37,295 bases of DNA from an uncultured Gammaproteobacteria bacterium (lineage in GTDB: Bacteria; Pseudomonadota; Gammaproteobacteria; GCA-001735895): the NCBI GenBank assembly GCA_963976575.1, contig CAXBMV010000001.1, positions 1-37,295 on the forward strand. Direction: 5' to 3'. Numbering within the stretch: position 1 is the stretch's first letter; the number at the start of each line of letters is the position of its first letter. The notes under the pieces were generated by a model. It was not told the DNA's origin. It made no database searches and saw nothing but the letters and a program-made list of their open reading frames with translations. Position numbers and translations under genes: made by a program. Positions 16,150 through 37,295 of this stretch are shown one piece after another.

Positions 16150-19146
16150 ATGGAAACTCGGAAACCAACACAAAAGTCACTCGCCAACCGCAAGCAGCCC
16201 ACTAAAATACAACCTGCTGAAAACAAGCAACCTGCCACCGAACATCCTGATGAGATGGGTTTTCCTATCGTTGTGCTTGGCGCTTCGGCTGGTGGACTAG
16301 AAGCTTTTGAGGCTTTTTTCAACACGACATCCGCTGTTTCGGGCATGGCATTTATCCTCATTGCACACCTCGATCCTACCCACATCAGCCTGTTACCCGA
16401 GCTGGTGCAAAAGCGAACCAAAATGCAAGTCCATAAAATAGTGGATGGCACGAAAGTTGAGCCTGACAACGTCTACGTGATTCCGCCGAATAATGACTTA
16501 ACAATCCTCAACGGTATTCTCCAGTTAATGCGTCAATCGCGGCCGCGAGGTGTCAATCTGCCCATCGACATATTTTTTCGTTCGCTTGCGCGCGATCAGG
16601 GTGCCAATGCGATTTGCATTATTCTCTCCGGCACGGGCACCGATGGTACCCTGGGTTTGAAGGCGATCAAGGGCGAAGTGGGCATGGTGATGGTGCAGGA
16701 CGAGGATTCGGCCAAATACGATGGCATGCCAAGAAGTGCGATCGCCACCGGACTTGCCGATTATGTTCTGCCACCCGATCAAATGTTTGCACAATTGCTC
16801 AAATATACCCGTCACAGTTTGCAGGTTGCCGCTCCTTTTAAGTCGAGCATCGAAGGCAATGCTGCAAACGCTTTGCAGAAAATCTACATCTTGCTTCGAA
16901 CACAAACCGACCACGACTTTTCGCTCTACAAAAAGAACACCATTTGCAGGCGCATCGAGCGGCGCATGGCCGTCAATCAAATCGATGATATCAATGAGTA
17001 TGTGCTTTACCTAAAGAACAGTGAGCGCGAAGTAAATATCCTGTTCCAGGAATTATTGATCGGGGTGACCAACTTTTTCAGGGATGCGGAAATGTTCGAC
17101 ACGCTGAGCGAGAAGGTGCTGACTAAATTGCTCGAAGAGAAACCCGATGGTTACACCATTCGAGTATGGGTGGCTGGATGCAGCAGTGGCGAGGAGGCCT
17201 ATTCGCTGGCGATTATTCTGCAGGAGTGCATGTCGCGGATAGATCGCCAGTTTAATGTACAGATCTTTGCCACGGATATCGATGAAGGTGCAATCAACTC
17301 TGCGCGCGCCGGCATCTATCCTGCGAGCATTCAGGCCGATGTTTCGCCAGAGCGCCTTAAACTCCATTTCACCAAGGAAGACGATGGCCAGTTTCGCATC
17401 AAGAAATCGATTCGCGAATCACTGGTATTTGCCTCGCATAATGTCATCAAAGACCCGCCATTTACCAAGCTCGATATTATGTCCTGTCGCAACCTTTTGA
17501 TTTATATGGGGCCTGAGTTGCAGAAAAGATTACTGCCAATTTTTCATTACGGTTTGAAACGGGATGGAATTTTGTTTCTCGGTTCGTCTGAAACCATTGG
17601 CCAGGATGGTGTCGAAATGTTTACAACGCTCGACAGAAAAGGCAAAATTTTTCGTCGCAAGCAAATCGCCGGCATTGGACACAAGATGCAGGACTACCCG
17701 ACTACTCCCGCCCGTCTGGAGATAGAAGTACCGGAAGTATCGGGTAGCATACGGCGCGCAGAAGAGATCAGCGCTTTGCAACTGGTCGAATCAATTCTAC
17801 AACAAAGCAAGGCCCCGCCCTGTGCCGTCATAGATGATGCCTGCAACGTGGTTTACATTCATGGTCGTACTGGTCGTTATCTGGAGCCAGCAGAAGGGAA
17901 AATCAGCGTCAATATCCTGGAAATGGCCCGACCAGGTTTGAAAGTGGTGCTCACCGCAGCAATCCGTAAGGTGGCGTTGAATAAAGAAGAAATTTGTCAC
18001 CGCGATTTGGAGGTTCAATGTGACGAGGACATTATCACCGTGGATTTATTTGTTAAGCCAATTCTGGAGCACAGTATCACGCGCGGGCTGATGATGGTGA
18101 TCTTTGAAGAGAAAAGTCCGTCTGCGTCAAAAAGCCAGAAACAAAATAAGTCGTTGGAAAAGAAGTTAAGTAGTAAAAGCCCCGAAGACATTGAACGCGA
18201 GTTGCTTTATGCCAGAGAAAACCTGCAAATTACGGTGGAGGAGCTGGAGGCATCGAACGAAGAATTAAAATCAACTAATGAGGAGCTGCAAAGCACCAAT
18301 GAAGAATTGCAAAGCACCAACGAAGAAATGGAAACCTCGAAGGAGGAATTGCAGTCACTGAATGAAGAGTCAATTACCGTAAACGCCGAACTACAAAGTC
18401 ACATCGACGAGCTGTCCAAAGCTAACGATGATATGAAAAACCTGCTCGATAGCACCGACATTGCCACCTTGTTTCTGGATAAGGATTTGTGTATTCGCCG
18501 CTTTACACCGGGGACGACTGAAATCATACCGCTGTCACGAGCCGACGTTGGGCGGCCGATTAGCAATTTTTCAAATACTCTGCTCGACACAAACCTGAGC
18601 GAATACGGCAGCAAGGTACTCGATGATCTGGCTATTCGCGAATTGGAGGTAAAATGTCTGGATGGCCGTATTTTTGCGATGAGGGTTCGCCCCTATCGAA
18701 CAATAACCAATTTGATCGATGGCGTTGTTGTCACTTTCGAGGATATTAGCGAGCGCAAGCGCAGCGAACAGATTGTCAATGAAACGGCGTATCGTTACCG
18801 AATTATGTTCGACCTCGCGAGTGACTCGATTGTAATGGTTAATGCAAGAACGGGGGGTATAAAAGAATCAAACCGCAATGCTCGAGAGCGCCTTGGCTAC
18901 TCGCTGGAAGAATTCCAGCAACTGGCGATACAGGATATCGAGGCCGTCGAGAACCCACGTGAAGTGTTGGCGCATTTGGCAAAACTCGTCAGCCAGAGAA
19001 GCGGGTTTTTCGAGACCCGGTACAGGACAAAGACGGCTAAAATTTTAAACGTAGTGGTGAAAGTTCAAGCTTTTACCATCGACCAAGAAAACTTCCTGCT
19101 ATTCGCCTGGCCCCCCGCTGACGAACGTCAGGCTATCTCTGACTGA
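16150..19146 (+). CDS. CheB methylesterase / CheR methyltransferase fusion protein with coiled coil and PAS domains
   Basis: 998 aa. The CheB-like part has VVLGASAGGLEAF and SGTGTDGT. The CheR SAM-binding block is VWVAGCSSGEEAYSLAI. STNEELQ heptad repeats are followed by two PAS-like segments. No output domain follows. Confidence 0.9.
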   Translation: METRKPTQKSLANRKQPTKIQPAENKQPATEHPDEMGFPIVVLGASAGGLEAFEAFFNTTSAVSGMAFILIAHLDPTHISLLPELVQKRTKMQVHKIVDGTKVEPDNVYVIPPNNDLTILNGILQLMRQSRPRGVNLPIDIFFRSLARDQGANAICIILSGTGTDGTLGLKAIKGEVGMVMVQDEDSAKYDGMPRSAIATGLADYVLPPDQMFAQLLKYTRHSLQVAAPFKSSIEGNAANALQKIYILLRTQTDHDFSLYKKNTICRRIERRMAVNQIDDINEYVLYLKNSEREVNILFQELLIGVTNFFRDAEMFDTLSEKVLTKLLEEKPDGYTIRVWVAGCSSGEEAYSLAIILQECMSRIDRQFNVQIFATDIDEGAINSARAGIYPASIQADVSPERLKLHFTKEDDGQFRIKKSIRESLVFASHNVIKDPPFTKLDIMSCRNLLIYMGPELQKRLLPIFHYGLKRDGILFLGSSETIGQDGVEMFTTLDRKGKIFRRKQIAGIGHKMQDYPTTPARLEIEVPEVSGSIRRAEEISALQLVESILQQSKAPPCAVIDDACNVVYIHGRTGRYLEPAEGKISVNILEMARPGLKVVLTAAIRKVALNKEEICHRDLEVQCDEDIITVDLFVKPILEHSITRGLMMVIFEEKSPSASKSQKQNKSLEKKLSSKSPEDIERELLYARENLQITVEELEASNEELKSTNEELQSTNEELQSTNEEMETSKEELQSLNEESITVNAELQSHIDELSKANDDMKNLLDSTDIATLFLDKDLCIRRFTPGTTEIIPLSRADVGRPISNFSNTLLDTNLSEYGSKVLDDLAIRELEVKCLDGRIFAMRVRPYRTITNLIDGVVVTFEDISERKRSEQIVNETAYRYRIMFDLASDSIVMVNARTGGIKESNRNARERLGYSLEEFQQLAIQDIEAVENPREVLAHLAKLVSQRSGFFETRYRTKTAKILNVVVKVQAFTIDQENFLLFAWPPADERQAISD

Positions 19147-19203
19147 TCAACCACGGAGTAATGCTCGACGAGATTCAACATCTCCAACACAGGGAAGACA
19201 CGG

Positions 19204-19488
19204 ATGGACAAAAAAGTGAAAGACTGGCAGCCGCATGTGTCAGACCACGCAAAACTGTGCAGCCGAGCGGGAAAAATGATGGCGTCTGGCAATGCGAATA
19301 ACAAAATTGACTACGCGATGCTAAAGTCGATCAACGAAGTCGGTCAGGTGATGGGCATGAAAACCATCGCAGAATTCGTCGAAAGCGCAGAAATTAAAGG
19401 TATGTTAGAAGCCATCGATGTGAATTACGCGCAGGGTTACGCAATCGGGCAACCCATTGATGTAAAGGCGCTGTTGGCAAGCGGCTAA
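19204..19488 (+). pseudogene. EAL-domain C-terminal remnant
   Basis: The last ~60 aa (MLKSINEVGQVMGMKTIAEFVESAEIKGMLEAIDVNYAQGYAIGQP) match the end of EAL phosphodiesterase domains. The first ~35 aa have no EAL character. At 94 aa it is far too short for a functional EAL domain. Confidence 0.5.
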
Positions 19489-21156: not shown

Positions 21157-22059
21157 ATGGCGATAGTAGATCTTAGGGAGTTTGAGGAGGAGTTTGTAGT
21201 CCACTTCGGGACCGAACGAACTCGCATTAACGCTTATACCCTCGCTTCAACTTTAGTAGCTATCGCGGATGCAACTCGTGAGGCAAATCAGATTGTTAAT
21301 CCAGGCTACTCTGTTGAGGTAGTAGTTGAAGCAATTAGCCCTGGAAGCTTTCGGGCAAAGTTCAAAGCCGTTTACACCGGCGCTGGCAATTTATTCTCGA
21401 ATGACAATCTAAAGACTATCGCCCTAAATGTAGTGGCATCATATATATTTGTAAATACCTTAGCACCAGATACAGAAGTTTCTGTGCGAGTAGATGATTC
21501 TCAAGTGATTATCGAGCAAGGCGACAAAACAATTATCGTGTCTAAAGAAACACACGACGCGATGAAAAATGTCGAGAAATCCCAGAAGTTTCGTCAAGAC
21601 ATAGGTAAGGCATTTTCTGCAGTAGAAAAAGACCAGGAAATTCACAGCATTGGTATCGCTCGCTCTCTCGATGATGAAAAATCGCCGCTTGAGATACCGC
21701 GTCAAAATTTTGGTTTGCTGAGCCAAGAAGCGATTCTTGAATCTGATAAGAGAGAACTTATTGAAGCCGCAGACTTAGAAATACTAAGGGCGGTTCTTGA
21801 GCGCAGCAAACGCAAATGGGAATTTGTTTGGCGAGGCGTCAAGATATCCGCACCTGTTCTGGATGAGAAATTCTTTGATGATTTTTTCGCTCATCGGATT
21901 ACAATTGCACCAGGCGATGCACTTCGTGTTCAACTTAAAATTTACCAACGCCGAAATGAGGACACTGGAATATATACTAATGAGCGATATGAGGTTACAC
22001 GTGTAGACGAGCACGTGCCACGTATGACCCAGATTGAAAATCCCCAAGGATACGTCTAA
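21157..22059 (+). CDS. hypothetical protein
   Basis: 300-aa ORF with an AAGGA-type RBS upstream. I recognised no domain. It is the first gene of a pair with the DUF3800 gene. Confidence 0.6.
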   Translation: MAIVDLREFEEEFVVHFGTERTRINAYTLASTLVAIADATREANQIVNPGYSVEVVVEAISPGSFRAKFKAVYTGAGNLFSNDNLKTIALNVVASYIFVNTLAPDTEVSVRVDDSQVIIEQGDKTIIVSKETHDAMKNVEKSQKFRQDIGKAFSAVEKDQEIHSIGIARSLDDEKSPLEIPRQNFGLLSQEAILESDKRELIEAADLEILRAVLERSKRKWEFVWRGVKISAPVLDEKFFDDFFAHRITIAPGDALRVQLKIYQRRNEDTGIYTNERYEVTRVDEHVPRMTQIENPQGYV

Positions 22060-22137: not shown

Positions 22138-23268
22138 ATGCCACAAAAAATCTACTTTGATGAATCGGGTTTTACTGGGAATAACCTGCTCAATAACAAT
22201 CAAACGATGTTTTCATACGGATCAGTAGCAACTTGCGATGATGAAGCTAGAGACTTTGTTGAATATCTGATTAAAAAGTATGGTGTTCAAAATGGTGAGC
22301 TAAAAGGCAGTAAACTAATAAAATACAATAAGGGAAGGAAGGCCATCTCAGAAATATTTGATATATTTCAAGGAAGAATCAAAGTGTCATTGTCAGATAA
22401 AAAGTATGCACTATCAGGAAAATTCTTTGAGTATATATTTGAACCATGCTTTTCTGAGAACAACTCATTATTTTATAACATTAACTTTCATCGTTTCATT
22501 GCCAACATTCTCCACTTGGAGTTTGTTGCAAGAGGAGCTGGTGCCGAGGAAATATTCTCAGATTTTGAAGAGTTGATGAGGAACAGCGATAATCCAGAGC
22601 TTGAGTCTCTATTCAGCACAACCGTACATCCTGAAAACTCACCAATAATGGTTCAAATTAGGGAGTTCGCACTTTGTCAAAAAGGAGCCATAAAAAAAGA
22701 ATTAGCTTCTTTGCCAGGTGATGGTGTTGCAAAGTGGATTCTTGATCTTACAAATACAGCTCTTTTCTCTTTGTTGGCTAATTGGGGGCTAGAGCATGAG
22801 CAGCTAACAGCAATATGCGATGACGCAAAACCCTTGCAGCATGATCAGCAACTATATAACGCAATGATAAATAGAGAGGATAAACACTTTTCACATATGG
22901 GAGGGGAAAAGCATCCAATTACTTTCAATTTATCCGGGCCCATACAGTTAGTTGACTCAAAAACTTATCATGGTGTGCAACTTGCTGATGCAGTTGCAGC
23001 GGCTTCAATATATGCAGTAAGTGGAGCGTCCGATAAACACGCAGAGGAATGGAAAGGTATCATTCCTGATATAGCCATTTATGGTAGTTTGTTGCCAGAT
23101 TATGATTATGTCGATTTAAATCGATATGAGGTGCAACGAAATGCAGTTGTAATGCTTGAATTGCACTCAAGAGCTACAAAAAACCAATCTTTGCTAGACG
23201 GTATGCCTGAGTATATAAATATAATTACGCAAGAACTGATTCATAACCCATTGCAAATAAATGCATAA
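22138..23268 (+). CDS. DUF3800-family protein
   Basis: 376 aa. The N-terminal KIYFDESGFTGNN matches the DESG motif at the start of DUF3800 proteins. This is recognition from memory. Confidence 0.6.
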   Translation: MPQKIYFDESGFTGNNLLNNNQTMFSYGSVATCDDEARDFVEYLIKKYGVQNGELKGSKLIKYNKGRKAISEIFDIFQGRIKVSLSDKKYALSGKFFEYIFEPCFSENNSLFYNINFHRFIANILHLEFVARGAGAEEIFSDFEELMRNSDNPELESLFSTTVHPENSPIMVQIREFALCQKGAIKKELASLPGDGVAKWILDLTNTALFSLLANWGLEHEQLTAICDDAKPLQHDQQLYNAMINREDKHFSHMGGEKHPITFNLSGPIQLVDSKTYHGVQLADAVAAASIYAVSGASDKHAEEWKGIIPDIAIYGSLLPDYDYVDLNRYEVQRNAVVMLELHSRATKNQSLLDGMPEYINIITQELIHNPLQINA

Positions 23269-24029: not shown

Positions 24030-24514
24030 TTAAAGCTCCAGGCAGTTAACCACCCAGAGATTGTGATGAATCTCGGTTACTTCGCTGTTGAGTTCAAGAT
24101 CCCTTGCTATGCTGGTGTAATCAATATGGTTACGGATTAAGTCAGGTAGTTGATCCAATTGATATAAGTCCTCTACAAGCTCAAAGGCATAGTCTGCCAG
24201 GCTACCTCGATGCAGGATAACTTCGTCCCTTCGTTTGATAGCTTCATCAAGGTGCATGATCTCTATCAGGTAGCAGATGGCTGATGCTTCATGACTATCG
24301 TCTGAATACTTGTCCAGCTCATCGAACCAGATATCGACGTTACCCTGGTTAATGTTAGTGGCGTTAAACACACGAGGGTTATCACCGTCGATGTATTCAT
24401 TTCGACTTCTTCGTAGAGAGATTTATTCATGTTGCTTTCAAACTCTTCGGTGCTGGTGAAATAGAAACCGGTGTAGCTGGTGTCGTAAGGGTTTGCGTAT
24501 AGGGTCGTTGTCAT
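24030..24514 (-). pseudogene. ArdA-like antirestriction protein, interrupted by an apparent -1 frameshift
   Basis: The N-terminal part (MTTTLYANPYDTSYTGFYFTSTEEFESNMNKSLYEEVE) is in one frame. The rest (NEYIDGDNPRVFNATNINQGNVDIWFDEL...IDYTSIARDLELNSEVTEIHHNLWVV) is in another. The frames switch at an A-run near 24395-24405. Both halves resemble ArdA-family proteins as I recall them. Confidence 0.6.
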
Positions 24515-24578: not shown

Positions 24579-25046
24579 TCATAGCAGCCCTCGCTCAGCA
24601 AACGAAATCACCTCTTCACCAACGATCAGATGATCGAGAACTCGAACATCGATTAAAGCTAATGCATCCTTCAGCCGTTTTGTGATCCTCTCGTCAGCCA
24701 GGCTCGGCTCTGCGATTCCGGACGGATGATTGTGGGCAAAGATAACAGCTGCAGCGTTACAGCTCAGGCAGGCTTTCAAGACCTCTCTGGGATAAACTGA
24801 AGCACTGTCAATGGTTCCTCTGAACAGCTCATCAAAAACAATCACTCTGTTACGGTTATCTAGGAAAAGACAGGCGAATACTTCGTGCTCGTAAGCGAAA
24901 AGCTTAAGCTTTACGAAGTCCTTGCTAGCTTGCGGACTGGTCATTGGTATTGAGTCTGGATCGTATAAAAGTCGAGATTCCAGAATCTTAAGTGCCGACT
25001 CAATAATGGCATCGTCGTTTGATATAGCGATTTGATTTGTGTTCAT
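24579..25046 (-). CDS. radC: RadC-like JAB/MPN domain protein
   Basis: 155 aa with the JAMM motif AHNHPSG and LLDHLIVG-type C-terminal blocks. This is the short stand-alone RadC form typical of islands and prophages. Confidence 0.85.
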
Positions 25047-25977: not shown

Positions 25978-26253
25978 ATGAACCGACGAGATTTTTTCAA
26001 CAGCATGGGAAGAAAGACTGCGCCAGTAGCTACTGGAGCCACTGCTCCTGCTCTCGTATATCTGAACTCGCTCAGTGACGAAATGAAAGCTTTAAGCAAA
26101 GATCTAAATGGAAAGTTAGGGGCTATATCAGCTGAAATAAAAGAACCGGTCCAGTCGCTACACAATCGCCTTGATGGTGCTGCTTTAGCAATTAGCTACC
26201 AGCAGATTCAGCTGTATTTCACGGTAAGGCAATGTCAAAGTCGACATAAGTAG
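25978..26253 (+). CDS. small protein with twin-arginine (Tat) type signal
   Basis: Track ORF 25939..26253. The ATG at 25978 gives MNRRDFFNSMGRKTAPVATGATAPALV, an RRxFF Tat motif plus an h-region. The mature part is about 60 aa with no recognised domain. Confidence 0.45.
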   Translation: MNRRDFFNSMGRKTAPVATGATAPALVYLNSLSDEMKALSKDLNGKLGAISAEIKEPVQSLHNRLDGAALAISYQQIQLYFTVRQCQSRHK

Positions 26254-26312: not shown

Positions 26313-26795
26313 TTGCCAAAGATCCAGGGATGCAAATGTGTTAGCCAGGAAACTGCCTTAGTGAGTTCAAAAAAAATACAAGATACCTTTAAAAAACTGA
26401 TTGCTTCTAGTAGGCATCGCAGACTGATTGTTACGCAAAGTGAGGGGAAAAAGGTGAAGATTCACTCAAGGCCGAACTTCATAGAAATTGACGGTGTTGT
26501 TTATCAACTAGTACCAAAAAATTCTAAAGGACCGCAGCAACCCCAAACGGGAGATTTACATGGTAAAAATCCTAGAAACTACAATCGTTCAAATTCGCCT
26601 CAAAGACCAAGTTCGCACCCAAGAGAAGGTTCGCCACCAAGAGGCGCCCAATTTCGAAAAGAACCCGATAATCTTCCCGCGGAATGGGATAACTGGGAAA
26701 ACTGGGACAACTGGACCGATTGGGACAACTGGGGCAACTGGGACAATTGGGGCGATTGGACCCAATGGGACGACTGGGATAACTGGAGCAATTAA
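26313..26795 (+). CDS. candidate RiPP precursor with C-terminal (Trp-X-Asn/Asp/Gln)x12 core
   Basis: The ORF ends ...[39 protein letters not shown]-stop and lies two genes upstream of a radical SAM/SPASM gene. The start is uncertain: TTG 26313, GTG 26361, or GTG 26454. The last is preceded by GAGGGG at 6-nt spacing. Confidence 0.7.
26685..26792 (+). repeat. 108-nt coding repeat with 9-nt/3-codon periodicity (TGG-GAY-AAC and variants)
   Basis: Read directly. There are twelve consecutive TGG codons spaced exactly 9 nt apart. Confidence 0.95.
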
Positions 26796-26883
26796 TAGAA
26801 TCAGGATAATGGGTTTTTGGGGAATCATCCCCAAATGGTTATATGTTGAACCTAAGTAAATAAATTCAAATAAATATTTGACT

Positions 26884-27687
26884 ATGAGAATTTCAATATC
26901 AACGGAGATTCAATCCATTAAGGCAATAAAGCCGCTTGAATTGAACCCTAGTTCGTATTTTGATGCTAGGGAAAGACGGATGCAGGAGCGCCATTTCTTA
27001 ACATGCAATTGGGGGGCGATTGAAGAATTGGAACTTGCCCCTCCGGAGAAGGGATGCAGGTCGGACATCTATTTCGGAATTGTTTCTGGTTTGAGCGATA
27101 TGTTCTGGGCCCAGTTTGGTGACCTTGAAAAAACTCCAATTGGCGAAATCGAACTTAATGAAAAAATAAAGGTTCCAGAGTTACGAGTTGAAAACTTAAA
27201 ACAAGTCATCTCCAAACTGGAAAGCGGAGTATCTAACTTTCCACTAGAAATTTTAAATTATCACGTTCTTCTGCAAGAAGGTAATAAACGATCAGCGGTT
27301 TTCGATGGCTGGTCAAATAATTATATAGGTCTCCATGCAGATTTTCTTACTTCATGGGGCTGGGAGAATCGTAATACTTTAGAGCGAAGACTGATTGTAA
27401 ACTTAGGGGATTCCCCTAGAGTATTAGCAATATCAAACGATGATTTGATTTCTCTTAGAGATAAATATGCTGACAAGTTCAGCGAGAAAGAATGGTCTCG
27501 TTTTACCGCTACCCCAAACAGCTTTTTTGTATCAAAAGTACTCGAATGTATAGGTCCAGATTTAATAACAGGTTATATCTTGGAACCTAATGAGTTTTGC
27601 ATCTTTCCAGCTCAAAACCACATCCACGATGGATTTACAGAAGGTTTTACGGATTTTGATGTCGTGCTTAATTGCCTAGTTAACTAG
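26884..27687 (+). CDS. hypothetical protein, possible double-stranded beta-helix (Fe/2OG oxygenase-like) fold
   Basis: Track ORF 26878..27687; I prefer the ATG at 26884. I recognised no family. Candidate metal ligands are GLHADF (HxD) and a distal NHIHDG about 100 residues later. This is suggestive only. Its stop abuts the rSAM start (TAG-GTG). Confidence 0.55.
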   Translation: MRISISTEIQSIKAIKPLELNPSSYFDARERRMQERHFLTCNWGAIEELELAPPEKGCRSDIYFGIVSGLSDMFWAQFGDLEKTPIGEIELNEKIKVPELRVENLKQVISKLESGVSNFPLEILNYHVLLQEGNKRSAVFDGWSNNYIGLHADFLTSWGWENRNTLERRLIVNLGDSPRVLAISNDDLISLRDKYADKFSEKEWSRFTATPNSFFVSKVLECIGPDLITGYILEPNEFCIFPAQNHIHDGFTEGFTDFDVVLNCLVN

Positions 27688-28803
27688 GTGCGACAAATGG
27701 ATCAAGTGAAATACTTGATGCTACAGCCCACCTCTTTTTGCAATCTCGATTGTAAGTATTGCTACCTACCAAATAGAGATAATCGTGGGAAACTTGGACG
27801 CGAGACGGTGGAGCGTCTCGTACATCTCATTAACAAAGATCATTGGTTGCTAAATCCGAGGTTATCGGTCATATGGCACGCCGGAGAACCTCTGGCATTG
27901 CCCTTGAAAAAGTTTGAAGAATTAGTAATTGAAGTAAATAAAATTCGAAATGTCTCAATTCAGCACTTTATTCAAACAAACGCAACGCTAATTTCTGACG
28001 ATTGGGCAAGTTTTTTTCAGAAATACAATATTCGAATCGGTGTCAGTATAGATGGCGCACAAGAGTCACATGACTCTCAAAGACAATACCGAGATGGGCG
28101 TGGGTCGTTCAAAAAGGCAATGGAAGGTATTTCAGTTCTGCAGAAGAAGAACATTCCTTTTTCATTAATTGCGGTAGTTACCAAACAATTTTTAAATAAC
28201 ATAAATGGAAACATTCATTTTCTAGCTTCTCTTGGTGCAAAACGAATTGGGTTAAATTTTGAAGAAATCGAAAGCTCAAACTTTAAATCCTCGTTAACTG
28301 GGGAAGAGTTGGGGGAGCCGATGGGTGAGATTTATAGCAGTCTACTAGAATTGCACAATTGCGGAAAAATTCGCTCACGAGAAATCGATAGATTATTTCA
28401 GCCCGGGAAGTATAGCGACTCCGATGCTTTTTGCTCAGACCTAAAGCCATTTTCTTTCCTTAACGTTTCAAGTGCCGGTGATCTAAGCACATTTTCTCCG
28501 GAACTACTTGATGCGACTTTCAGGCGACGAAATTTTATATACGGAAATATTCACAAGGTTAAATCTTTAACGGAACTATTTTCTAGTTCATTGCTTCAGA
28601 GCGACTATAAGGAAATACTATCTGGTATTGCTAAATGCAGGAAGGAATGTGAATTTTTTGAGAACTGTGGAGGGGGAGAGGCTTCCAATAAAGTATTCGA
28701 GAACGGCACTTTTGCTAGTTCAAATACAATGCACTGCTATGTAAAAATCCAAGTGCCTATTTCCTGGGCCTCGGGCAGCAAGAATACAAAGGTCAAATTA
28801 TGA
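27688..28803 (+). CDS. radical SAM enzyme with C-terminal SPASM-type auxiliary cluster domain
   Basis: 371 aa. The N-terminal CNLDCKYC is the CX3CX2C motif. GEPL and anSME-like body blocks are present. C-terminal Cys-rich CRKECEFFENCGGGEA...HCY is typical of SPASM/twitch maturases. An alternative ATG start is at 27697. Confidence 0.85.
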   Translation: MRQMDQVKYLMLQPTSFCNLDCKYCYLPNRDNRGKLGRETVERLVHLINKDHWLLNPRLSVIWHAGEPLALPLKKFEELVIEVNKIRNVSIQHFIQTNATLISDDWASFFQKYNIRIGVSIDGAQESHDSQRQYRDGRGSFKKAMEGISVLQKKNIPFSLIAVVTKQFLNNINGNIHFLASLGAKRIGLNFEEIESSNFKSSLTGEELGEPMGEIYSSLLELHNCGKIRSREIDRLFQPGKYSDSDAFCSDLKPFSFLNVSSAGDLSTFSPELLDATFRRRNFIYGNIHKVKSLTELFSSSLLQSDYKEILSGIAKCRKECEFFENCGGGEASNKVFENGTFASSNTMHCYVKIQVPISWASGSKNTKVKL

Positions 28804-29407: not shown

Positions 29408-31972
29408 TTAATATTCTTGCTGCCCCTCTTCCACTCCCGCTTTTATTACCGAGATAGCTAGAGCCGCTTCATGGGCAGGCAACTCTTGCAGGCGATACAA
29501 CAAAGCACCTAGTGCTGGCCTCCAAAAATTGGCACCCCAAAATCCTTCTGTATCTTCATCTAGAATCTCTTCCAGTTCAACTTGGACATCCTCTTCGCGC
29601 AAGAACTTTATTTTTTTGTCGAGAGAAATACGTACACTCAAGGCCTCAATATTTTTCGGCAAAGGCAGTCCCGCTACCCCATTGGAAAGCGACAAAATAA
29701 TACATGGCCGTTTGGTCTGCTCATGAGCCACAAGCCGTTGTTGTACAAGGTCGATCAAATGGCGGGCGTAAACATCTAAGGGTGAGAGGTTTGCGTCTAA
29801 AAGAACTACAGACCTGTTGTCGCTATCAAAATCTTTTTTAAATTGATGATCCCCTGTAACACCGATCCCGCAATCAAAAATCAGGCAACCCGATTTGTCT
29901 TTAGATCCCCACGCCTCTGCTATGAGCCTGGCTGCGATACCTTCTAAAACAAGAACTAGACCGGCGTCTAAAACAACATGTCCCGCCTGCTCTAATGCCG
30001 TAGCATGTTTCGATGATAGACCTATTGATTTCAAAGTATCGGTCAAAGGTTCGTTTTCGTGTTCCTTGGTTCTAAAGCTGTTAGCTATCTGCTCATTATT
30101 GATGGATTGACTTGGTTTATCGTTATTTTCGGGTTTGTTAATAAGCTCATCATAAATAACGACTTGCCCAAGCGTATCCAGCACTTCTGCTTTCGCCTTC
30201 TTAAGTGATTCCTTGACTGCTTTATTTATAGAGGAAGGTATTGCCTTCAGATCCTTTTCTTGCTTTGAATTTGCCTTTTTTAACTCCGCACTCTGTTTCT
30301 TAATTTTCTCAAGCTCATCCAGTAGTTCACTTTTTTCATTTATCCGAAGTTCAACTATTTTTTGGATCTCCTGATCAATTCTCACCTTGACCCTTTCATG
30401 TGTCATGGCTTGTTCTAACAAGGTGTCAATACCACTATCATGACTCTCAATATATTCTAACTCTTCCAGTAATCTTGCTTTACGCGAATCATTTTGATGT
30501 CCCTCAGCAGAATTTATCCACTCTAGTAATTTTCTCTGCTGAGCTTTTGTTAAATTATCAGGATTATCGTTGTTGCTGTTAAAAAATTTCTTTAGCGTGG
30601 ATGCTAACGTAGAGCATTCGTAAACTTCATGTGCAGGCAGTGGGCCGAGCACATGCAATCTTCCCTCAAACCTAAAAGCTTCCAGAGATCTCCAACACGG
30701 CATTCCCTCATCAAATCCATCATCTCGAGTTAAATCCTTTCCTTGAGGGCATCCAAGTATTAGCCCATCACGAAGCTGGAATAGATAGGGAGCTGTTTGA
30801 TCCAATCCAGATCTCGAAAACTGTTCTTTTATGTATTCGCGAACAGAATCATAGTCGGTGGAGTTAAATGGCACTAACTGAAGTTCGTATACGAGAGATT
30901 TTGTGCCTTTTAAATGATAGTTAGTAAAATGATCCGCGCTACCAGGTTCGTTTCTATCAATATGCCAAATACCTAGTTCATGCTTTTTAGGTTGTTTCGG
31001 ATAGTGCTGCCCAGTAAATGCTTGAACATCCCCCGAATTAGGAAAAAGAGACCTTCTGATCTCCTTGTCCTCTAGAGACAATAATCTGCCATCCCAAGAA
31101 TGAACTGCGAAGGGCTGCACAAACACAGCTGTCGCTGGTGAGTCTTTAGTGCACTTACCCACAATTTGGTCTCTATCGAAATCGAAAAGCGGCTCTTCAA
31201 AATGGTCTAGTTGAGTTATCTGGACCCCAGATGGGGCTGACTTAGAAGTACTTTTCTTCTTTGCTACACTTTTTGAATATTCGAATAGTATATTGGAGAT
31301 ATCGTTGAGGCCGAGATCGCTAAGAGCCTCCATCGAATTTTGAGTTCCTTCACTCTCTCCTTGTTTGATAAAGTACAACCCGGATAAAAAATTTGCTATC
31401 CCTTGTCGCTGATTCACCAGGTATTCATCAGGATCTTTCCCGTCAAAAACAGCTATCAAAGCAAGAGCGAGATTGGGATCAGAAAAGGAATCATCGTGGT
31501 TTACATTTTCTTCCACAGTTGTTCGCTCTTCTTCAGATGCTTGTTCGAGATCAGAATCCTGATCAGAACCATCTGGGGAAGATCTTAGGAAACTTAAAAG
31601 CTTTCCTGACAAACTGTCTGAGAATAAATGAATCAAGCAAGAACGAGCAAATCGTTTAGCATCATTTTCAGAAAGACTCTCAGTTGAATCTTCATACAGA
31701 GAATATGTTTCAACTATCTCATCAACGCTTTCAGGCTCTATCAGCGATAGATTTTTTGAAAGCCAATTTTGCACAATAGGTTCCGTAGGCTCTGGGAGAT
31801 TTAGCATGGCGGTAATTCGAGCCTCGCCTCCACGAGGTAGGTTCTGGACCTTCGCTCCCTTCATAATTAGCATGGGTCGATTAGCTGAAAAAAATTGGCG
31901 CAGCTCATCGCCACTCATACCGAAGTGAAGCAAGTATTTAAACCGTGATCTATTTATTCCTTTGTATGCCAT
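29408..31972 (-). CDS. large uncharacterised protein with acidic linker and C-terminal coiled coil; last gene of the Druantia-like operon
   Basis: 854-aa ORF that overlaps the upstream gene by 23 nt (alternative ATG at 31918). It has an acidic stretch (DGSDQDSDLEQASEEERTTVEEN) and a long heptad-like region (ELEKIKKQSAELKKANSKQEKDLK). No domain recognised. Confidence 0.7.
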   Translation of the reverse strand: MAYKGINRSRFKYLLHFGMSGDELRQFFSANRPMLIMKGAKVQNLPRGGEARITAMLNLPEPTEPIVQNWLSKNLSLIEPESVDEIVETYSLYEDSTESLSENDAKRFARSCLIHLFSDSLSGKLLSFLRSSPDGSDQDSDLEQASEEERTTVEENVNHDDSFSDPNLALALIAVFDGKDPDEYLVNQRQGIANFLSGLYFIKQGESEGTQNSMEALSDLGLNDISNILFEYSKSVAKKKSTSKSAPSGVQITQLDHFEEPLFDFDRDQIVGKCTKDSPATAVFVQPFAVHSWDGRLLSLEDKEIRRSLFPNSGDVQAFTGQHYPKQPKKHELGIWHIDRNEPGSADHFTNYHLKGTKSLVYELQLVPFNSTDYDSVREYIKEQFSRSGLDQTAPYLFQLRDGLILGCPQGKDLTRDDGFDEGMPCWRSLEAFRFEGRLHVLGPLPAHEVYECSTLASTLKKFFNSNNDNPDNLTKAQQRKLLEWINSAEGHQNDSRKARLLEELEYIESHDSGIDTLLEQAMTHERVKVRIDQEIQKIVELRINEKSELLDELEKIKKQSAELKKANSKQEKDLKAIPSSINKAVKESLKKAKAEVLDTLGQVVIYDELINKPENNDKPSQSINNEQIANSFRTKEHENEPLTDTLKSIGLSSKHATALEQAGHVVLDAGLVLVLEGIAARLIAEAWGSKDKSGCLIFDCGIGVTGDHQFKKDFDSDNRSVVLLDANLSPLDVYARHLIDLVQQRLVAHEQTKRPCIILSLSNGVAGLPLPKNIEALSVRISLDKKIKFLREEDVQVELEEILDEDTEGFWGANFWRPALGALLYRLQELPAHEAALAISVIKAGVEEGQQEY

Positions 31973-33536
31973 TTCCGAAGTTTCTATTTGGTCTCTTATA
32001 CTTTGATGAAGCGAGTATGTATGTCATTAAAGGACTAGCTAATAGGCTTCCGAGCCGCTGAAGATTATTTTGATTCGGATTATTAATGAAATTTGAGGCG
32101 ATACTAGCTGTTCGAGAATCGTATCTGCAGCGAACAACGTTTAAAATCCACTTTTCCATGTTCGATCCAATTTTCTGATTTACAGGAACCAAGAGTAAAT
32201 CGTCATCTGTCTTAGATCTGGCCGGCCGTATTTCTCCAAAGCCTCCTGCTAGCACTATTTTTTCAGATTTTTTAGGCATCGTTCCAATCAGGCCATCAAA
32301 TTTAAGATCCTCATTAACCTTTTCGACGTACCTTGCGAGTCGATCATTACTGCATATGACCTTAATTTCTCTTGCATATAGGTCCGTTTGCTTTAGATCA
32401 GTATCTGATATTAAATTCCACCGTAAATCTTCAGAGCTTAACTCAATACCATTTGGTTGTATGAGACAGCATTCCTCTACTCTAATAACAACCTGTTCAA
32501 TCCCGTCAATCAGTATAGTTACGTCTTGATCATTTAGACGGAGCCCTTCTATTTGAACGCGTTCGTCGGTAACAATGCTGAATCTAGCATTTCCAATAGA
32601 GTCTGCTGCACCTTCGATACTTATCTCGTGCGACGGGGTTTTTTGAACAACTAGAACTTCGGGTGAATCGGGGTAAATATATGCTCCATCAACCCCAATA
32701 TGATGAGGTAGGGGATGAACAACGCATGCACGTGGTCGACGCCCTCGAATGGCGCGATCGAAAAATGCTGATATACCTTCTTTTACTGAATTAAATGTAG
32801 ATGCATTGAACGTAGATGGTAACTCTACTTCGTAAACTTTCCAGTCCGCCAGAGCGCCGCGCAGCGTCCATTCAATATACGCCAAAATGTTTTCGGGCGG
32901 TAAGATTGAATCTGCTGAAACTATCCAGTATTTGCCACTCCATTCTAATGGCTCATTCTCGAATAGTATTCTCCCCCTTCCTTCACTGACGGAAAATAGA
33001 TTCATATTAGCACTGAACAGACTGGTCTGTTCGTTAATATGGTCTGATAAAGGTAGAAGGTCTCTTTCCGCTCCACACTCTAACAATGGAACCTCGGGAG
33101 TTACCGTTAACGTATGAACTTTACATAGTTGAGCTATCGTAAATTCTTTGAGCCCCGTTTTATGTTGAATCCATAAGGATCCTGTCAGCTCTGTACTGAA
33201 TGGTAATGAAGGAATGCGTACGGAAAGCTCGAAATTCGAAAACTCCTGGCGATAAGATAAAAACAATCCGCAAAGTAAAGAGTCACGCCTAGGGTAAAGA
33301 GATTCAACCTTACTCGCTGATTGCGATTTGAATCGATTTACAACGTCGGACGGGGGATGATAAAGTTCACAATCAGGTTTGGCCCGATGGCTGTAGTGCG
33401 CAAAGTGCGGTCTGCGCATCGCTCCTTGTCTCAAATGAACGGGCTCACCACAAGTCGGGCAACTCATGCCATAGCCAATATATACCCCTCTTTGGGCGCG
33501 GACGATCTTTCCTCGATAGTCCTTCGCCCAATCCAC
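31950..33536 (-). CDS. uncharacterised protein with N-terminal CoiA-like zinc finger
   Basis: 528 aa. The GTG start overlaps the stop of the upstream gene (TAGTG). The N-terminus CPTCGEPVHLRQGAMRRPHFAHYSHRAKPDC resembles the CxxC...HFAH motif of CoiA-like proteins. Confidence 0.7.
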   Translation of the reverse strand: MDWAKDYRGKIVRAQRGVYIGYGMSCPTCGEPVHLRQGAMRRPHFAHYSHRAKPDCELYHPPSDVVNRFKSQSASKVESLYPRRDSLLCGLFLSYRQEFSNFELSVRIPSLPFSTELTGSLWIQHKTGLKEFTIAQLCKVHTLTVTPEVPLLECGAERDLLPLSDHINEQTSLFSANMNLFSVSEGRGRILFENEPLEWSGKYWIVSADSILPPENILAYIEWTLRGALADWKVYEVELPSTFNASTFNSVKEGISAFFDRAIRGRRPRACVVHPLPHHIGVDGAYIYPDSPEVLVVQKTPSHEISIEGAADSIGNARFSIVTDERVQIEGLRLNDQDVTILIDGIEQVVIRVEECCLIQPNGIELSSEDLRWNLISDTDLKQTDLYAREIKVICSNDRLARYVEKVNEDLKFDGLIGTMPKKSEKIVLAGGFGEIRPARSKTDDDLLLVPVNQKIGSNMEKWILNVVRCRYDSRTASIASNFINNPNQNNLQRLGSLLASPLMTYILASSKYKRPNRNFGNGIQRNK

Positions 33537-34741
33537 TACTTTGCCGCCTCTCGCTCGTAATTATCTGTATCATCATACTCATCGGAAGAAATTAATTTGA
33601 GGAAATTTTCTCTCTCCCAATCCCTATATTTTGGCATACGCTCAGATCTAGGTATGACCCAGCGGCTAAGGGCATTACTAGCACGTTTCTTGACCGTGGG
33701 TAAGCCGACATAACGAGCTTTCTTGTTTTCTCCCCGTAGTAGTTTGATTGCGTTCGAAGCTAGTGGACAGAAAAAAACTTCCCGAGTAAGACCATGTCGA
33801 GCTAGCGCAGGGTTCATTCCAAGTCGGGAAAATGCTTGCCTTACAACTCTGAGGCGATAGTTCGGCCCTTGGCCATAATCGTGTGAATCGAAAGATTCAT
33901 CGCCTATCGATTCTAAATAGTTTTTGAGTTCGATAAACAAATCATTTGATATATGAAAATGCCCCCAACCAGATGTATATCCAATAGATTCGAAAATAGT
34001 ATTGCCATCCAAACGAAGCCTATTGTAAACAGAAGAACGACCTAAAGCTGAAGTCGTTGTAACTACTGCTAATTGAGCATTTTTACTCTTGCCCGAAATA
34101 AGACCCACAGAATCATAGTATTTAGAATGAAAAGCGTTTACGACATCTCGTGTTTGAATAAGACTGGCAATGAGTTTGCCACCTAAAAGCATATTGTATG
34201 GAGGAACCGCTCCTAACACATATGCATCCATCAAATTTACGAGAGCTTCAGATCTTCGATAATGATCCCAACCGATAAGCTCATCACGCGCTTTAAGATT
34301 AAATACAGCATCGCCTAATGCGAAAATACCGATTAATTTCCCATTACTATCGTCCCAAACGAGGAATCTCATTCGCCGCCCATATCCCTCAGATATAGGA
34401 ACACTCCAATAGTAAGTAGCGAGACGAAACAGATTGGACTGCCACGTGCCTGCTCTTATAACTTCTAACCGTGGTCGGATATCTTTAACTCGTATATCTG
34501 CCCCGGATGCAAAGTAATTTATTAGTTTGTCAGCGTGACCATTGATCCAACGACCATTATCTGCAAGTTTGACCTCTCTTTGATAAGAATGCATGTTGCG
34601 ATATGATTGCTTATCAAATCCCGGGGGTACAAGCTCCCCGTCTTCACCTTTGGTGAAATTTAGCTTCTTAAAGTGTTGTCGGATTTTTCGACGTAGACGC
34701 GCTTCCGCTCCTGGAATCTTAACTATCTTAGATTTACTCAT
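33536..34741 (-). CDS. DUF4338-like protein (DruA-like)
   Basis: 401 aa with an ATGA start/stop overlap with the helicase gene. From memory, the block GYGRRMRFLVWDDSNGKLIGIFALGDAVFNLKARDELIGW...MDAYVLGAVPPYN resembles DUF4338, the DruA family of type I Druantia. An HMM search is needed to confirm. Confidence 0.6.
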   Translation of the reverse strand: MSKSKIVKIPGAEARLRRKIRQHFKKLNFTKGEDGELVPPGFDKQSYRNMHSYQREVKLADNGRWINGHADKLINYFASGADIRVKDIRPRLEVIRAGTWQSNLFRLATYYWSVPISEGYGRRMRFLVWDDSNGKLIGIFALGDAVFNLKARDELIGWDHYRRSEALVNLMDAYVLGAVPPYNMLLGGKLIASLIQTRDVVNAFHSKYYDSVGLISGKSKNAQLAVVTTTSALGRSSVYNRLRLDGNTIFESIGYTSGWGHFHISNDLFIELKNYLESIGDESFDSHDYGQGPNYRLRVVRQAFSRLGMNPALARHGLTREVFFCPLASNAIKLLRGENKKARYVGLPTVKKRASNALSRWVIPRSERMPKYRDWERENFLKLISSDEYDDTDNYEREAAK

Positions 34742-37295
34742 ACAAGGACTCCATACGCGCCAGGTAAATCTCTAGATAATTCATAAGATGAGAATGCAAT
34801 TGTTGAACTGTTGGAATCAAATCCATAATGTTCTGGTCGCACAAGTGAGGGAAACGAATATAACTTAACCGTTTTACCTTCGTTGTTGGTTGCAATTACT
34901 GGGGCGATATTAGAACTAGACAACTGCCAACCTGCCAACTCGAGCATGTCCGCAAGCGGGCTCAAAATATTTTTTTGAGCATCAATAGAAAGAATTTGAG
35001 GCAGAGTACCCTTGATAAGATAATTGAGTAGATCGAGGCCCAAAAACCGATCCAAGGTTGAATGATGAAATCGATTTCCATAGTGCCGTAAACATTTATC
35101 GCAGGAAGAGCTGCAATCACAGTTGGTTAGCAACTTCTCAACCTGGGCAAGCACGCTTCCTATTACCTCTCCAGCCTGAGTAGCATATCCAGCACCTCCC
35201 GATAGCGTGTCATAAACAAAGATGTCTACAAAATTCTCTTCCCGAACAGGTTGAAATCTGAAACCCGCATTTATTTCTCTGATGTCAATGTCCAATTCTC
35301 TTCCAACACCCAAAACAATTGCTTCAGCAAGAGATTGAATAGCGTCAGAAATTGGAGCTCTTTCAAGCCGATCAACAGGGTTGAATCTTAGCTCTGTACT
35401 TATAGGAATATGAATCAACAATGCATCAGAATTAAAGCTGTATCCAAGATATACTCTCTCGAAACGTCCTAGGCACCGGCGACTAGAGGTGTTTCTCCCC
35501 GAAACGTTGTAATCACGTTCATGCGCACCCTGGTTAGCTTCATCAACGGCAGTTTTTCCGCACTGATTACATATTGAAAAACCATCGTGTTGGCCATTTT
35601 CCTCCTCACCTTTGTTAACCATGACGAGTTGCTGATCTCTGGCAAAAGCAATTTCACAATTTTTACCGAACTTCTTCCAATTGAAGTTACTATCTTCTGG
35701 TACCGATAGCTGAGCATTGGTCGCACTAGTAAAGACTTGATCGTCGTCGTATTCATCCACCTCTCGGCCACCGTCAGGAAATACGACTTGCGGGACAATA
35801 ACTTTCCTTGCTTCAAGTGCAGCCATACCACATAAAGGACATTCCTCGCCGCTAGGTTCTACTAACCTGAACCCTGGTGTAAACTCACATTCTGGGCAAA
35901 ATATATAGTACCGTCGCTCGGAAAAAAGTCTTGATGAACGATTCTCCACCGCAGTCGAACCGTTGGCAGCCACCGAGCCGATTCTATATGTCTTCTTATC
36001 GATAACTACAAATCGACCGGGGGCATACTCAGAGAGTGCGATATTGAGGCCTTGCTGGGGTCGTTGAATAATATTAACTTTTGTAAAGCCGTTTCGCACT
36101 TCAGGTGGCCCCTCAATTTGAAGAGCGCACAAATCCCTAGGAAAGGCATAAGAAGGAAGAAACCCGCGACTAAACAAGAACTCAATTAGTTTAAGTTCTG
36201 AGGTTTCTAGTTCATCTTCATTTGTGGGGCGAATGCGTTTCAATTCATCAAGAAACTCAACGGCCACAGTGTAAGGAGTTTTTGTATATGACTTTGGAAG
36301 CCATTCTTGAATAGCTGTAAAACAAGACTTAGCTGAATCCGCCGTTTCTAACCAACCCCTAAACGCCAGCAAGCTAAATGCACTCGCTACATTATAAAAC
36401 TCCAGTGTCTTACCTAAGACAGAGAAAACATCAGAACCACTTGGGATCGGGTTCTCAAAGTGGAAATATGCTTGTACTAGTTGAGCACGAATATGCCTCT
36501 CGATAATTTTGGGGTTTTCAATGTCTATTCCAGGGAGTGTGGGTTCACCAGATATAATTTGTTCAGGATTGTCAAAATAGTGATTGTCGTGAGGACTATT
36601 TTGGGCATAAGTCAACACAGTTGAGACTGCTGAGCCTCTGCGTCCAGTGCGGCCCGCACGTTGTTGATAGTTTTGTCTTAAGGGTGGAACATTACGGAGA
36701 CCAACAGCCACCAATGACCCTATGTCAATACCAACTTCCATTGTTGTAGTGCTACTCAGAACATCGATTGATGTATCAGATGGTTTTACAATAATATCCC
36801 TGAACAGGCGCTCAAAGTCTTCCGTAGTTGTGCTCGAGTCTTCAACATCACGATAGGATAACTGTGCTGTATGCTCTTCGACCGACAAATTGAAAGGGCT
36901 TACTTTGCCACGTAGAACATCAACTACGGGGTCTCTGAAAAAGGCCTTACGCGCACGCAAGTAATCTGTCTCCCCAGGGTTAACTGCAATTGTACCTGAC
37001 GCTAAGCAAGCCGAGCAGTGACCCCACCAATCAGAGGGGGAAACTGCAGCACAATATGGGCACTGAAACCAATTTTGGCCTTCTGTGGACAAACTTAGAG
37101 AGAGTTTATTTGGGTCCAAAAAAAGGCCATCCCGACTAGGACTCGAATGACACATAACCTCAGCAAAAACTTGGCAAATTTCTTCTAAATTTGTAACCTT
37201 ATCATTCAAGAAATCTTGGACCTGGCGATTGAAACCGCCCATTTGGTTTAGCCCGCCAGATAGTAGGTGGCCGGCAGCTTTTATTCTAACGCCTT
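34738..37295 (-). CDS. superfamily-2 helicase C-terminal part fused to a DUF1998-like zinc-binding domain (DruE-like); 5' end outside window
   Basis: The reading frame has no stop between 37243 and the window edge, so the ATG at 37242 is internal. Helicase motif V/VI-like sequences are TTTMEVGIDIGS and QQRAGRTGRRG. CxxC pairs include CPYC/CSAC, CPEC/CPLC and CNQC. The C-terminal YDTLSGGAGY...CDCSSSCDKCLRHYGNRFHH is typical of DUF1998. Confidence 0.8.
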   Translation of the reverse strand, partial: GVRIKAAGHLLSGGLNQMGGFNRQVQDFLNDKVTNLEEICQVFAEVMCHSSPSRDGLFLDPNKLSLSLSTEGQNWFQCPYCAAVSPSDWWGHCSACLASGTIAVNPGETDYLRARKAFFRDPVVDVLRGKVSPFNLSVEEHTAQLSYRDVEDSSTTTEDFERLFRDIIVKPSDTSIDVLSSTTTMEVGIDIGSLVAVGLRNVPPLRQNYQQRAGRTGRRGSAVSTVLTYAQNSPHDNHYFDNPEQIISGEPTLPGIDIENPKIIERHIRAQLVQAYFHFENPIPSGSDVFSVLGKTLEFYNVASAFSLLAFRGWLETADSAKSCFTAIQEWLPKSYTKTPYTVAVEFLDELKRIRPTNEDELETSELKLIEFLFSRGFLPSYAFPRDLCALQIEGPPEVRNGFTKVNIIQRPQQGLNIALSEYAPGRFVVIDKKTYRIGSVAANGSTAVENRSSRLFSERRYYIFCPECEFTPGFRLVEPSGEECPLCGMAALEARKVIVPQVVFPDGGREVDEYDDDQVFTSATNAQLSVPEDSNFNWKKFGKNCEIAFARDQQLVMVNKGEEENGQHDGFSICNQCGKTAVDEANQGAHERDYNVSGRNTSSRRCLGRFERVYLGYSFNSDALLIHIPISTELRFNPVDRLERAPISDAIQSLAEAIVLGVGRELDIDIREINAGFRFQPVREENFVDIFVYDTLSGGAGYATQAGEVIGSVLAQVEKLLTNCDCSSSCDKCLRHYGNRFHHSTLDRFLGLDLLNYLIKGTLPQILSIDAQKNILSPLADMLELAGWQLSSSNIAPVIATNNEGKTVKLYSFPSLVRPEHYGFDSNSSTIAFSSYELSRDLPGAYGVLV

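Follow-up and report, generated by a model that had tools for sequence, protein, structure and literature searches.

Radical S-adenosylmethionine (rSAM) enzymes of the triceptide class form three-residue cyclophanes in peptides that are made on the ribosome and modified after translation (RiPPs). Their precursors have aromatic-X-X (Ω1-X2-X3) motifs in a C-terminal core, and the crosslink joins an aromatic ring carbon to Cβ at i+2 by a C(sp2)-C(sp3) bond, with a loss of 2 Da for each motif. OscB, of the GrrM/OscB family, is reported to link C7 of a Trp residue to the Cβ of an Asn or Asp residue at position i+2 (review, PMC11002830). The mic cluster of the minviopeptin pathway comprises the precursor MicA, the rSAM enzyme MicB, the α-ketoglutarate (αKG)/Fe(II) enzyme MicC and the ADP-ribosyltransferase MicD. 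MicC oxidatively cleaves the N-Cα bond of Gly in an already crosslinked triceptide and leaves a C-terminal amide, a reaction for which the leader is not needed; according to the authors, MicC homologues are often paired with rSAM enzymes and other activities are expected in the family (PMC12912966). In the YhhA/YhhB/YhhC system, the partner of the rSAM three-residue-cyclophane-forming enzyme is an Fe(II)/αKG-type enzyme, by which core Asp is β-hydroxylated (PMC12186529). The locus described here lies at 26313-28803 of a 37,295-nucleotide stretch of DNA (the window) from an uncultured Gammaproteobacteria bacterium (contig CAXBMV010000001.1, GenBank assembly GCA_963976575.1). It consists of a precursor gene that ends in twelve W-X-(N/D/Q) triplets, a gene for an αKG/Fe(II) oxygenase and a gene for an rSAM maturase. 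It is proposed that the three genes form a triceptide-type RiPP cassette in which the peptide is crosslinked by the rSAM enzyme and tailored by the oxygenase, a reading to which we assign a probability of about 75%. The locus is a divergent example of the known triceptide class, nearest to the GrrM/OscB lineage, and not a new kind of system.

Precursor, radical SAM enzyme and oxygenase

The precursor gene (26313..26795, forward strand) has a maximal open reading frame (ORF) of 160 residues that starts with TTG. The 36 C-terminal residues of its translation form twelve uninterrupted W-X-(N/D/Q) triplets (26685..26792, forward strand), the array that had been noticed by a model, the author of an earlier note, which read the DNA without database searches. 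Tandem Repeats Finder assigns the array a period of 9 bp, 11.3 copies and the consensus TGGGACAAC. A pattern that describes three W-X-(N/D) triplets at the DNA level has 7 matches in the window, all within the array, compared with an expectation of 0.00 in 100 shuffles. Position X is occupied by Asp in six triplets, by Gly and Thr in two each, and by Glu and Ser in one each; the third residue is Asn eight times, Asp three times and Gln once. With Asp and Glu at position X the core is acidic, and with only two Gly it is not Gly/Asn-rich. A TAA TAG double stop directly follows the array, and the core has no follower peptide. The public gene calls, taken from the contig record TARA_SAMEA4397215_METAG-scaffold_1614 of an ocean metagenome, place the start of the precursor at GTG 26361 (144 residues). 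An alternative GTG at 26454 (113 residues) has the sequence GAGGGG six bases ahead of it, at 26442-26447. Either of these GTG codons is likely to be the real start, rather than the TTG of the 160-residue ORF. On reading its sequence, the leader proves hydrophilic, with abundant Pro, Arg, Ser, Asn and Gln and no hydrophobic signal-like stretch. It includes an 18-nucleotide tandem repeat (26603..26642, forward strand, Tandem Repeats Finder) that encodes RPSSHP and REGSPP. A word-indexed protein search with the precursor recovered only the precursor itself.

Directly upstream of the precursor, an ORF of 91 residues (25978..26253, forward strand) has an N-terminus that resembles a twin-arginine signal (MNRRDFFNSMGRKTAPVATGATAPALVYL); the ORF has no family match. 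That this ORF, which begins with MNRRDFF, might be a split-off leader of the GrrA type was considered and rejected: neither the ORF nor the precursor is matched by a hidden Markov model (HMM) of ten GrrA-like leaders.

The precursor is separated by 82 nucleotides from the oxygenase gene on the same strand. The stop codon TAG (27685-27687) of the latter abuts GTG 27688, the start of the rSAM gene, so that the co-oriented layout of the three genes is as described in the earlier note. The rSAM gene (27688..28803, forward strand) encodes 371 residues, or 368 from an in-frame ATG at 27697. It had been supposed from the letters alone that the enzyme belongs with the cyclophane-forming maturases rather than with the anaerobic sulfatase maturases (anSME), and the subfamily profiles agree. 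The best NCBIfam match, over the full length, is TIGR04261 'cyclophane-forming radical SAM/SPASM peptide maturase GrrM/OscB' with 307.3 bits (curated cut-off 310), followed by AmcB with 272, DynA with 140, the anSME family TIGR03942 with 136.9 (cut-off 349) and YhhB with 121 bits (cut-off 445). For comparison, the bona fide relatives P0003 and P0014 and the enzyme of the metagenome locus L044 score 394-458 bits against TIGR04261, and P0004, an orthologue with a truncated gene call, scores 245 bits. Apart from one true relative (L002), a scan of genome contigs with the single rSAM sequence brought up distant rSAM proteins.

The Pfam Radical_SAM domain is matched with E = 1.8e-19. The CX3CX2C motif of the earlier note is present as C18, C22 and C25 in FCNLDCKYCY and is invariant across 15 relatives. 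In the C-terminal part, only C317, C321, C327 and C350 (C-x3-C-x5-C...C) are conserved in these 15 relatives. About 45 further columns are invariant in the alignment, and the window enzyme retains every family-invariant residue, including the three and the four Cys. Canonical SPASM domains (Pfam PF13186) contain a seven-Cys motif that binds two auxiliary [4Fe-4S] clusters. Pfam SPASM was not detected in the window enzyme at E <= 0.01, and the seven-Cys motif is missing from it and from all sampled relatives of the GrrM/OscB family. Of the SPASM-type C-terminus that had been predicted, there remains one set of auxiliary-cluster Cys, the four of which would suffice for one cluster. The solved structure closest by sequence is that of an anSME (4K37, E = 1e-18, N-terminal 165 residues only); the last Cys of the anSME CX2CX5CX3C motif is replaced by Glu at the aligned position. 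A local motif, CGGGEASNK, is common to the window enzyme and that of locus L135, whereas typical GrrM members have CGGGAPSNK. Judged by its profile scores, the enzyme stands at the margin of the GrrM/OscB family as a divergent protein and is not a sulfatase maturase.

The middle gene (26878..27687, forward strand) encodes 269 residues, or 267 in the public gene call, which starts at ATG 26884. Its product had been noted as an unknown protein and can now be assigned. A word-indexed search recovered only the protein itself; an exhaustive HMMER search found 20 relatives. In an alignment of 21 sequences (A1), G151, H153, D155, N175, R181, H250, D251, G252 and D261 are invariant. The A1 profile matches MicC (PDB 9VKM) with E = 3.7e-59, compared with the weak direct similarity of the window sequence alone (E = 0.026). 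H153, D155 and H250 align with the MicC facial triad H160/D162/H253, and R181 aligns with the αKG-binding R188; the corresponding MicC motifs are GMHID, NLGREDRY and IIHDG. An AlphaFold2 model (predicted local distance difference test 82.7, predicted template-modelling score 0.83) suggests a double-stranded β-helix fold. The best Foldseek matches of the model are the αKG/Fe(II) oxygenases KdoO, the JmjC domains of KDM6B/UTY, FIH and HygX, with probabilities of 0.97-1.00 and low TM-scores of 0.3-0.4. By profile and alignment the protein is a member of the MicC family of αKG/Fe(II) oxygenases, with the His-Asp-His triad and the αKG-binding Arg intact. Its closest relative, P0123 (41% identity), is encoded on a contig of 1.1 kb.

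On plasmid pTCL26-01_E of Nostoc sp. TCL26-01 (L141, 489-4438), an annotated grrM gene lies between genes of two different Fe(II)/αKG-type oxygenases: upstream, a PhyH-family dioxygenase and, downstream, a protein annotated as hypothetical that is MicC-like (E = 5.7e-78 with the A1 profile). In another locus (L140, 804-3849), the rSAM protein carries a fused PF13640 oxygenase domain, and a MicC-like gene is again a neighbor.

The second-closest oxygenase relative, P0124 (32% identity), occurs in three metagenome contigs (L133-L135), where its gene is located between an ORF of 214 residues that ends in ...PWDNSDWGNWDNWRDNPGWGNWWN and an rSAM gene whose product is 41% identical to the window enzyme. 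These contigs have the cassette of the window in the same order and on the same strand: a precursor that ends in W-X-N, a MicC-like gene and an rSAM gene. Besides the window, the order precursor-oxygenase-rSAM thus recurs in a single further metagenomic lineage. Between the two precursors, the junction of leader and core can be aligned (BLASTP E = 3e-6), and both read ...PD..L...E-WDN there. A leader segment common to both, LNLGGRRYRLVPVDS in the L133-L135 copy, can tentatively be proposed from these two sequences. Tailoring by an oxygenase seems to be a recurrent partner of GrrM/OscB-type enzymes.

Array density and comparison with described systems

When metagenomes were scanned for DNA that encodes four W-X-(N/D) triplets in a row, at least 120 loci (L013-L132) were obtained. 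Among the matches listed, a GrrM-like rSAM gene is present in 12 of 120 loci. In all 10 listed loci with a close full-family rSAM match (E <= 3e-25), the array ORF immediately precedes the rSAM gene and shares its strand; L054 and L076 have weaker rSAM matches, at a distance of several hundred bases from the array. The same position directly upstream of the rSAM gene is found for the array ORFs of L138 and L139, which were reached from the enzyme side. The array of L138 has 11 triplets (WIN, WGD, WGN, WNN, WNN, WAN, WAD, WNN, WGN, WGN, WRN) and that of L139 has 10, including one W-X-K. Contiguous runs of 9 triplets occur in each of L054, L076 and L127 and a run of 8 in L044; beside annotated grrM genes of Nostoc and Phaeobacter plasmids the arrays are shorter and interrupted. 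In total, there are more than 15 independent loci in which a relative of the enzyme directly adjoins a W-X-N array. The two refuting checks of the earlier note that concern subfamily and co-occurrence with W-rich ORFs come out in favor of its reading. The opinion in the earlier note that the array is far denser than those of known precursors is not supported, since precursors adjacent to bona fide GrrM/OscB enzymes contain 8-11 contiguous triplets. A dense array is a normal feature of GrrM/OscB-family precursors, and the twelve triplets are the longest run in the survey, at the top of a continuum.

In L012, a small ORF (5245-5445) is located downstream, and not upstream, of the gene of P0003, the closest full-length relative of the rSAM enzyme (39% identity). 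It ends in ...TTFSDHSDWSDSWD, a contiguous series of Phe-, His- and Trp-X-Asp triplets, which suggests that mixed-aromatic arrays may occur within the same rSAM family.

Among the described systems, GrrM/OscB resembles the window cassette most. It is the best-scoring enzyme family and has the same combination of CX3CX2C with C-x3-C-x5-C...C; its precursors are encoded directly upstream and carry C-terminal W-X-N/D motifs, often in the contiguous runs described above. The window differs in an enzyme score just under the cut-off, an identity of at most 42%, an acidic core and an oxygenase gene inserted between the precursor and the rSAM gene. Typical GrrM precursors have a hydrophobic, signal-peptide-like N-terminus and a helical ERLDAIRGAV-type motif, both of which the window precursor lacks. 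The HMM of the ten GrrA-type leaders finds nothing in the window, its best values (E = 0.7) being in unrelated ORFs. Precursors of the GrrA type have a Gly-rich, Trp-containing repeat, in contrast to the two Gly of the window core.

The mic cluster shares with the window a MicC homologue encoded beside a triceptide rSAM enzyme, with the triad and the αKG-binding Arg conserved. It differs in that the window cassette has neither an ADP-ribosyltransferase nor a follower peptide; moreover, MicB is PasB/daropeptide-like and not GrrM-like, and MicA has three spaced motifs (YSK, HAS, FTK). The Yhh system shares the pairing of rSAM enzyme and oxygenase, and Asp, the residue modified by YhhC, is the most common residue at position X of the window core. 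However, the YhhB HMM score is far from its cut-off and YhhC is, by its description, a different kind of oxygenase. The anSME structures (4K36/4K37) represent the closest solved rSAM core by sequence, and their C-x-C-x5-C auxiliary-cluster segment aligns. The second set of auxiliary-cluster Cys is absent from the window enzyme, its anSME score is well under the cut-off and no sulfatase gene is adjacent.

Proposed maturation of the peptide

The crosslink chemistry and the C-H hydroxylation by the oxygenase are transferred from homologous systems and would proceed as follows. The rSAM enzyme would bind the leader of the precursor of 113-144 residues. Through 5'-deoxyadenosyl radical chemistry it would abstract a Cβ hydrogen of the third residue of each triplet (Asn, Asp, perhaps Gln), after which this Cβ would be bonded to the indole of the Trp that lies two residues upstream, at C7 by analogy with OscB. 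In this way each of the twelve Trp-X-Asn motifs is probably stapled into a small ring; the motif reported for OscB fits every core triplet except WTQ. The product would contain up to twelve adjacent, non-fused three-residue cyclophanes, with a mass loss of 2 Da per ring and of 24 Da at most. The rings would be adjacent and not fused because successive triplets share no residue. The processing into twelve cyclophanes foreseen in the earlier note agrees with the enzyme family, the co-occurrence with W-X-N arrays and the chemistry of OscB, but the exceptional density of motifs is not supported and fused rings are not expected. The MicC-like oxygenase would then act on the crosslinked product and hydroxylate a C-H bond through an Fe(IV)-oxo species, with one of two outcomes. 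It may hydroxylate a residue stably, for example Asp at position X, in the manner of YhhC, or it may hydroxylate the Cα of Gly in the manner of MicC, with subsequent scission of the N-Cα bond.

Several observations weigh against this scheme. The TIGR04261 cut-off is missed by 2.7 bits, and the nearest relatives of the rSAM enzyme beyond itself are only 35-42% identical in a collection of 5.8 billion proteins; with both the score and the identities this low, substrate and regiochemistry could differ from those of GrrM/OscB enzymes. Lys266, which is essential in MicC, is not conserved in the oxygenase, which has V263 instead. The position is hydrophobic in most A1 sequences, and there is an invariant Asp (D261) two residues earlier. 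The leader is dissimilar to GrrA-type leaders, as judged by the HMM of ten leaders, and no NCBIfam or Pfam model matches the window precursor, nor six other W-X-N precursors. A follower peptide that could be trimmed in the manner of MicC is not available. No signal peptide, protease or transporter is found in or near the cassette; for peptidase and exporter this had been stated in the earlier note and is confirmed by the gene annotation. This gap in export is weightier here because typical relatives have signal-peptide-like N-termini and the window precursor has none. Scans for promoters and terminators gave no signal above shuffled expectation.

Genomic island and alternative readings

The first ~15,500 bases of the window have a G+C content of ~54% and contain the housekeeping genes mpl, glyQ and glyS and genes of an ABC-F ATPase and an S41 peptidase. 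From ~15.5 kb on, the G+C content is ~40-48% and the region, within which the cassette lies, is island-like. Its left edge (16150-19488) is marked by a CheB-like/CheR-like/PAS fusion protein of 998 residues and an EAL fragment of 94 residues, the EAL ORF being seemingly truncated. There follow genes for the candidate defence protein PDC-S42 (21157..22059) and for DUF3800 (22138..23268) and, on the reverse strand, the genes of the antirestriction protein ArdA (24030..24371) and of RadC (24579..25046). Downstream of the cassette and convergent with it, a Druantia-like system occupies 29408-37295 of the reverse strand. It consists of the C-terminal part of DruE1, which leaves the window (34738..37242, 890 bits), DruA (33536..34741, 595 bits), a weakly DruB/CoiA_N-like protein of 528 residues (31950..33536) and a protein of 854 residues with the best score to DruG2 (29408..31972). 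The order E-A-B-G is not that of a textbook type I system. Neither a tRNA gene nor an integrase gene was found in the window, there is no tRNA gene at the island boundary, and an Rfam scan of the window revealed no family.

What is new in this locus is the divergent pair of enzymes, with about 41-42% identity or less to anything found, together with a leader that has neither a signal peptide nor a GrrA-type match, an acidic core and a position in a defence island.

The triceptide reading presupposes that the array is translated in the Trp frame. A check was needed because the (W-X-N/D)x4 DNA pattern mostly picks out metagenome sequences that read as W/R/C-rich nonsense in the Trp frame, resemble out-of-frame repeats and have no rSAM neighbor. 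In the window, too, the +1 frame is open across the array (ORF 26560..26859, 99 residues) and reads (Gly-X-Thr/Ile)x12, so that the repeat might be truly collagen-like and the W-X-N reading an out-of-frame artefact. We consider this highly improbable. In the 9-nucleotide unit, positions T1, G2, G3 and A8 are invariant, and the changes affect positions 6 and 9, both of them wobble bases when the unit is read in the Trp frame (GAT/GAC, AAC/AAT). The collagen frame would place T1 at the wobble base of its third codon, yet T1 is invariant in 12/12 units. Furthermore, the Trp frame runs on as an ORF of 113-160 residues, the one chosen by the public gene callers, and the gene next to the array encodes an enzyme family specific for Trp-X-Asn. 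The orthologous array of L134/L135 is not strictly periodic in 9 nucleotides; there the W frame is kept and the collagen-like frame is reduced to an ORF of 30 codons. These codon patterns and neighborhoods support the Trp frame as the genuine one. It is equally improbable that the rSAM enzyme is an anSME or an enzyme of cofactor biosynthesis and the Trp-rich ORF an unrelated neighbor. The similarity to 4K37, confined to 165 N-terminal residues, and the 137 bits with the anSME HMM would fit such a function, but the score is far below the cut-off of 349 bits and below the GrrM/OscB score, no sulfatase gene occurs among the genes of the window, and the enzyme has one set of auxiliary-cluster Cys compared with two in anSME. 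In addition, the pairing of this enzyme family with W-X-N ORFs recurs in the more than 15 loci described above.

Variants that accept the Trp frame and the enzyme family concern the product and its role. The precursor might be multi-core, with only some of the motifs crosslinked, or the oxygenase might cut at Gly (in WGN, in WGD or in the leader) and release short amidated cyclophane peptides without a protease. MicC indeed cleaves at Gly in a crosslinked triceptide independently of the leader (PMC12912966), no protease gene lies near the cassette, and position X is Gly in two triplets of the window core and again in L135. However, the Gly targeted by MicC follows a ring and does not lie within one, a cut within a ring would leave fragments held together by the crosslink, the essential Lys266 of MicC is not conserved, and other oxygenases of triceptide pathways hydroxylate Asp instead (YhhC, PMC12186529). 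This variant is unlikely, though less so than the others considered here. The cassette might also be cargo of a defence island and act in phage defence or in a conflict between mobile elements rather than produce a classical secreted natural product, which we regard as quite unlikely. It lies in a region of 40-48% compared with 54% G+C, between the PDC-S42/DUF3800/ArdA/RadC genes and the Druantia-like system, and its precursor has no export signal. Homologous rSAM genes are found beside AbiEi/AbiEii (L012), patatin and SEFIR/TIR (L138) and RES-Xre (L140) genes, beside RelE/ParE on a conjugative Phaeobacter plasmid (L142) and near a phage holin and a CHAP-like gene (L133-L135). These recurring neighbors are suggestive of mobile, conflict-related surroundings. 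The link to defence is, however, guilt by association, and natural-product clusters are also commonly borne on islands. None of the PADLOC models fits any of the three proteins, apart from those of viperin, to which the enzyme has a generic rSAM match that is not taken as membership. In IMG/VR only two relatives of the enzyme were found, both in GrrM-like loci with an ordinary single-motif precursor, and scans of IMG/VR for MicC-like proteins gave no match; for these reasons the enzyme family is not clearly phage-borne. Phage GenBank records yielded only anSME-like partial matches. A bolder version, in which the cassette would be the founder of a distinct triceptide lineage carried by mobile elements, with a single rod-like peptide of twelve Trp cyclophanes, protease-free processing by the oxygenase and action inside the cell or in conflicts with phages and mobile elements, has as little likelihood as the defence role itself.

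If the triceptide cassette is expressed, it would give rise to a 36-residue peptide that consists almost wholly of strained Trp cyclophanes, and it is suited to test how far a three-residue-cyclophane enzyme works processively on motifs arranged back to back. In the cassette, the partner of such an enzyme is moreover a second, divergent representative of the recently described MicC oxygenases. The recurrent placement beside defence and toxin-antitoxin genes provides a lead, at the level of association. For genome mining, two points follow from the survey. Elsewhere, a DNA match to (W-X-N)n is in most cases an out-of-frame repeat, frequently collagen-like, and the neighborhood and the codon positions therefore need to be checked; beside GrrM/OscB enzymes, runs of 8-11 uninterrupted W-X-N units are the norm.

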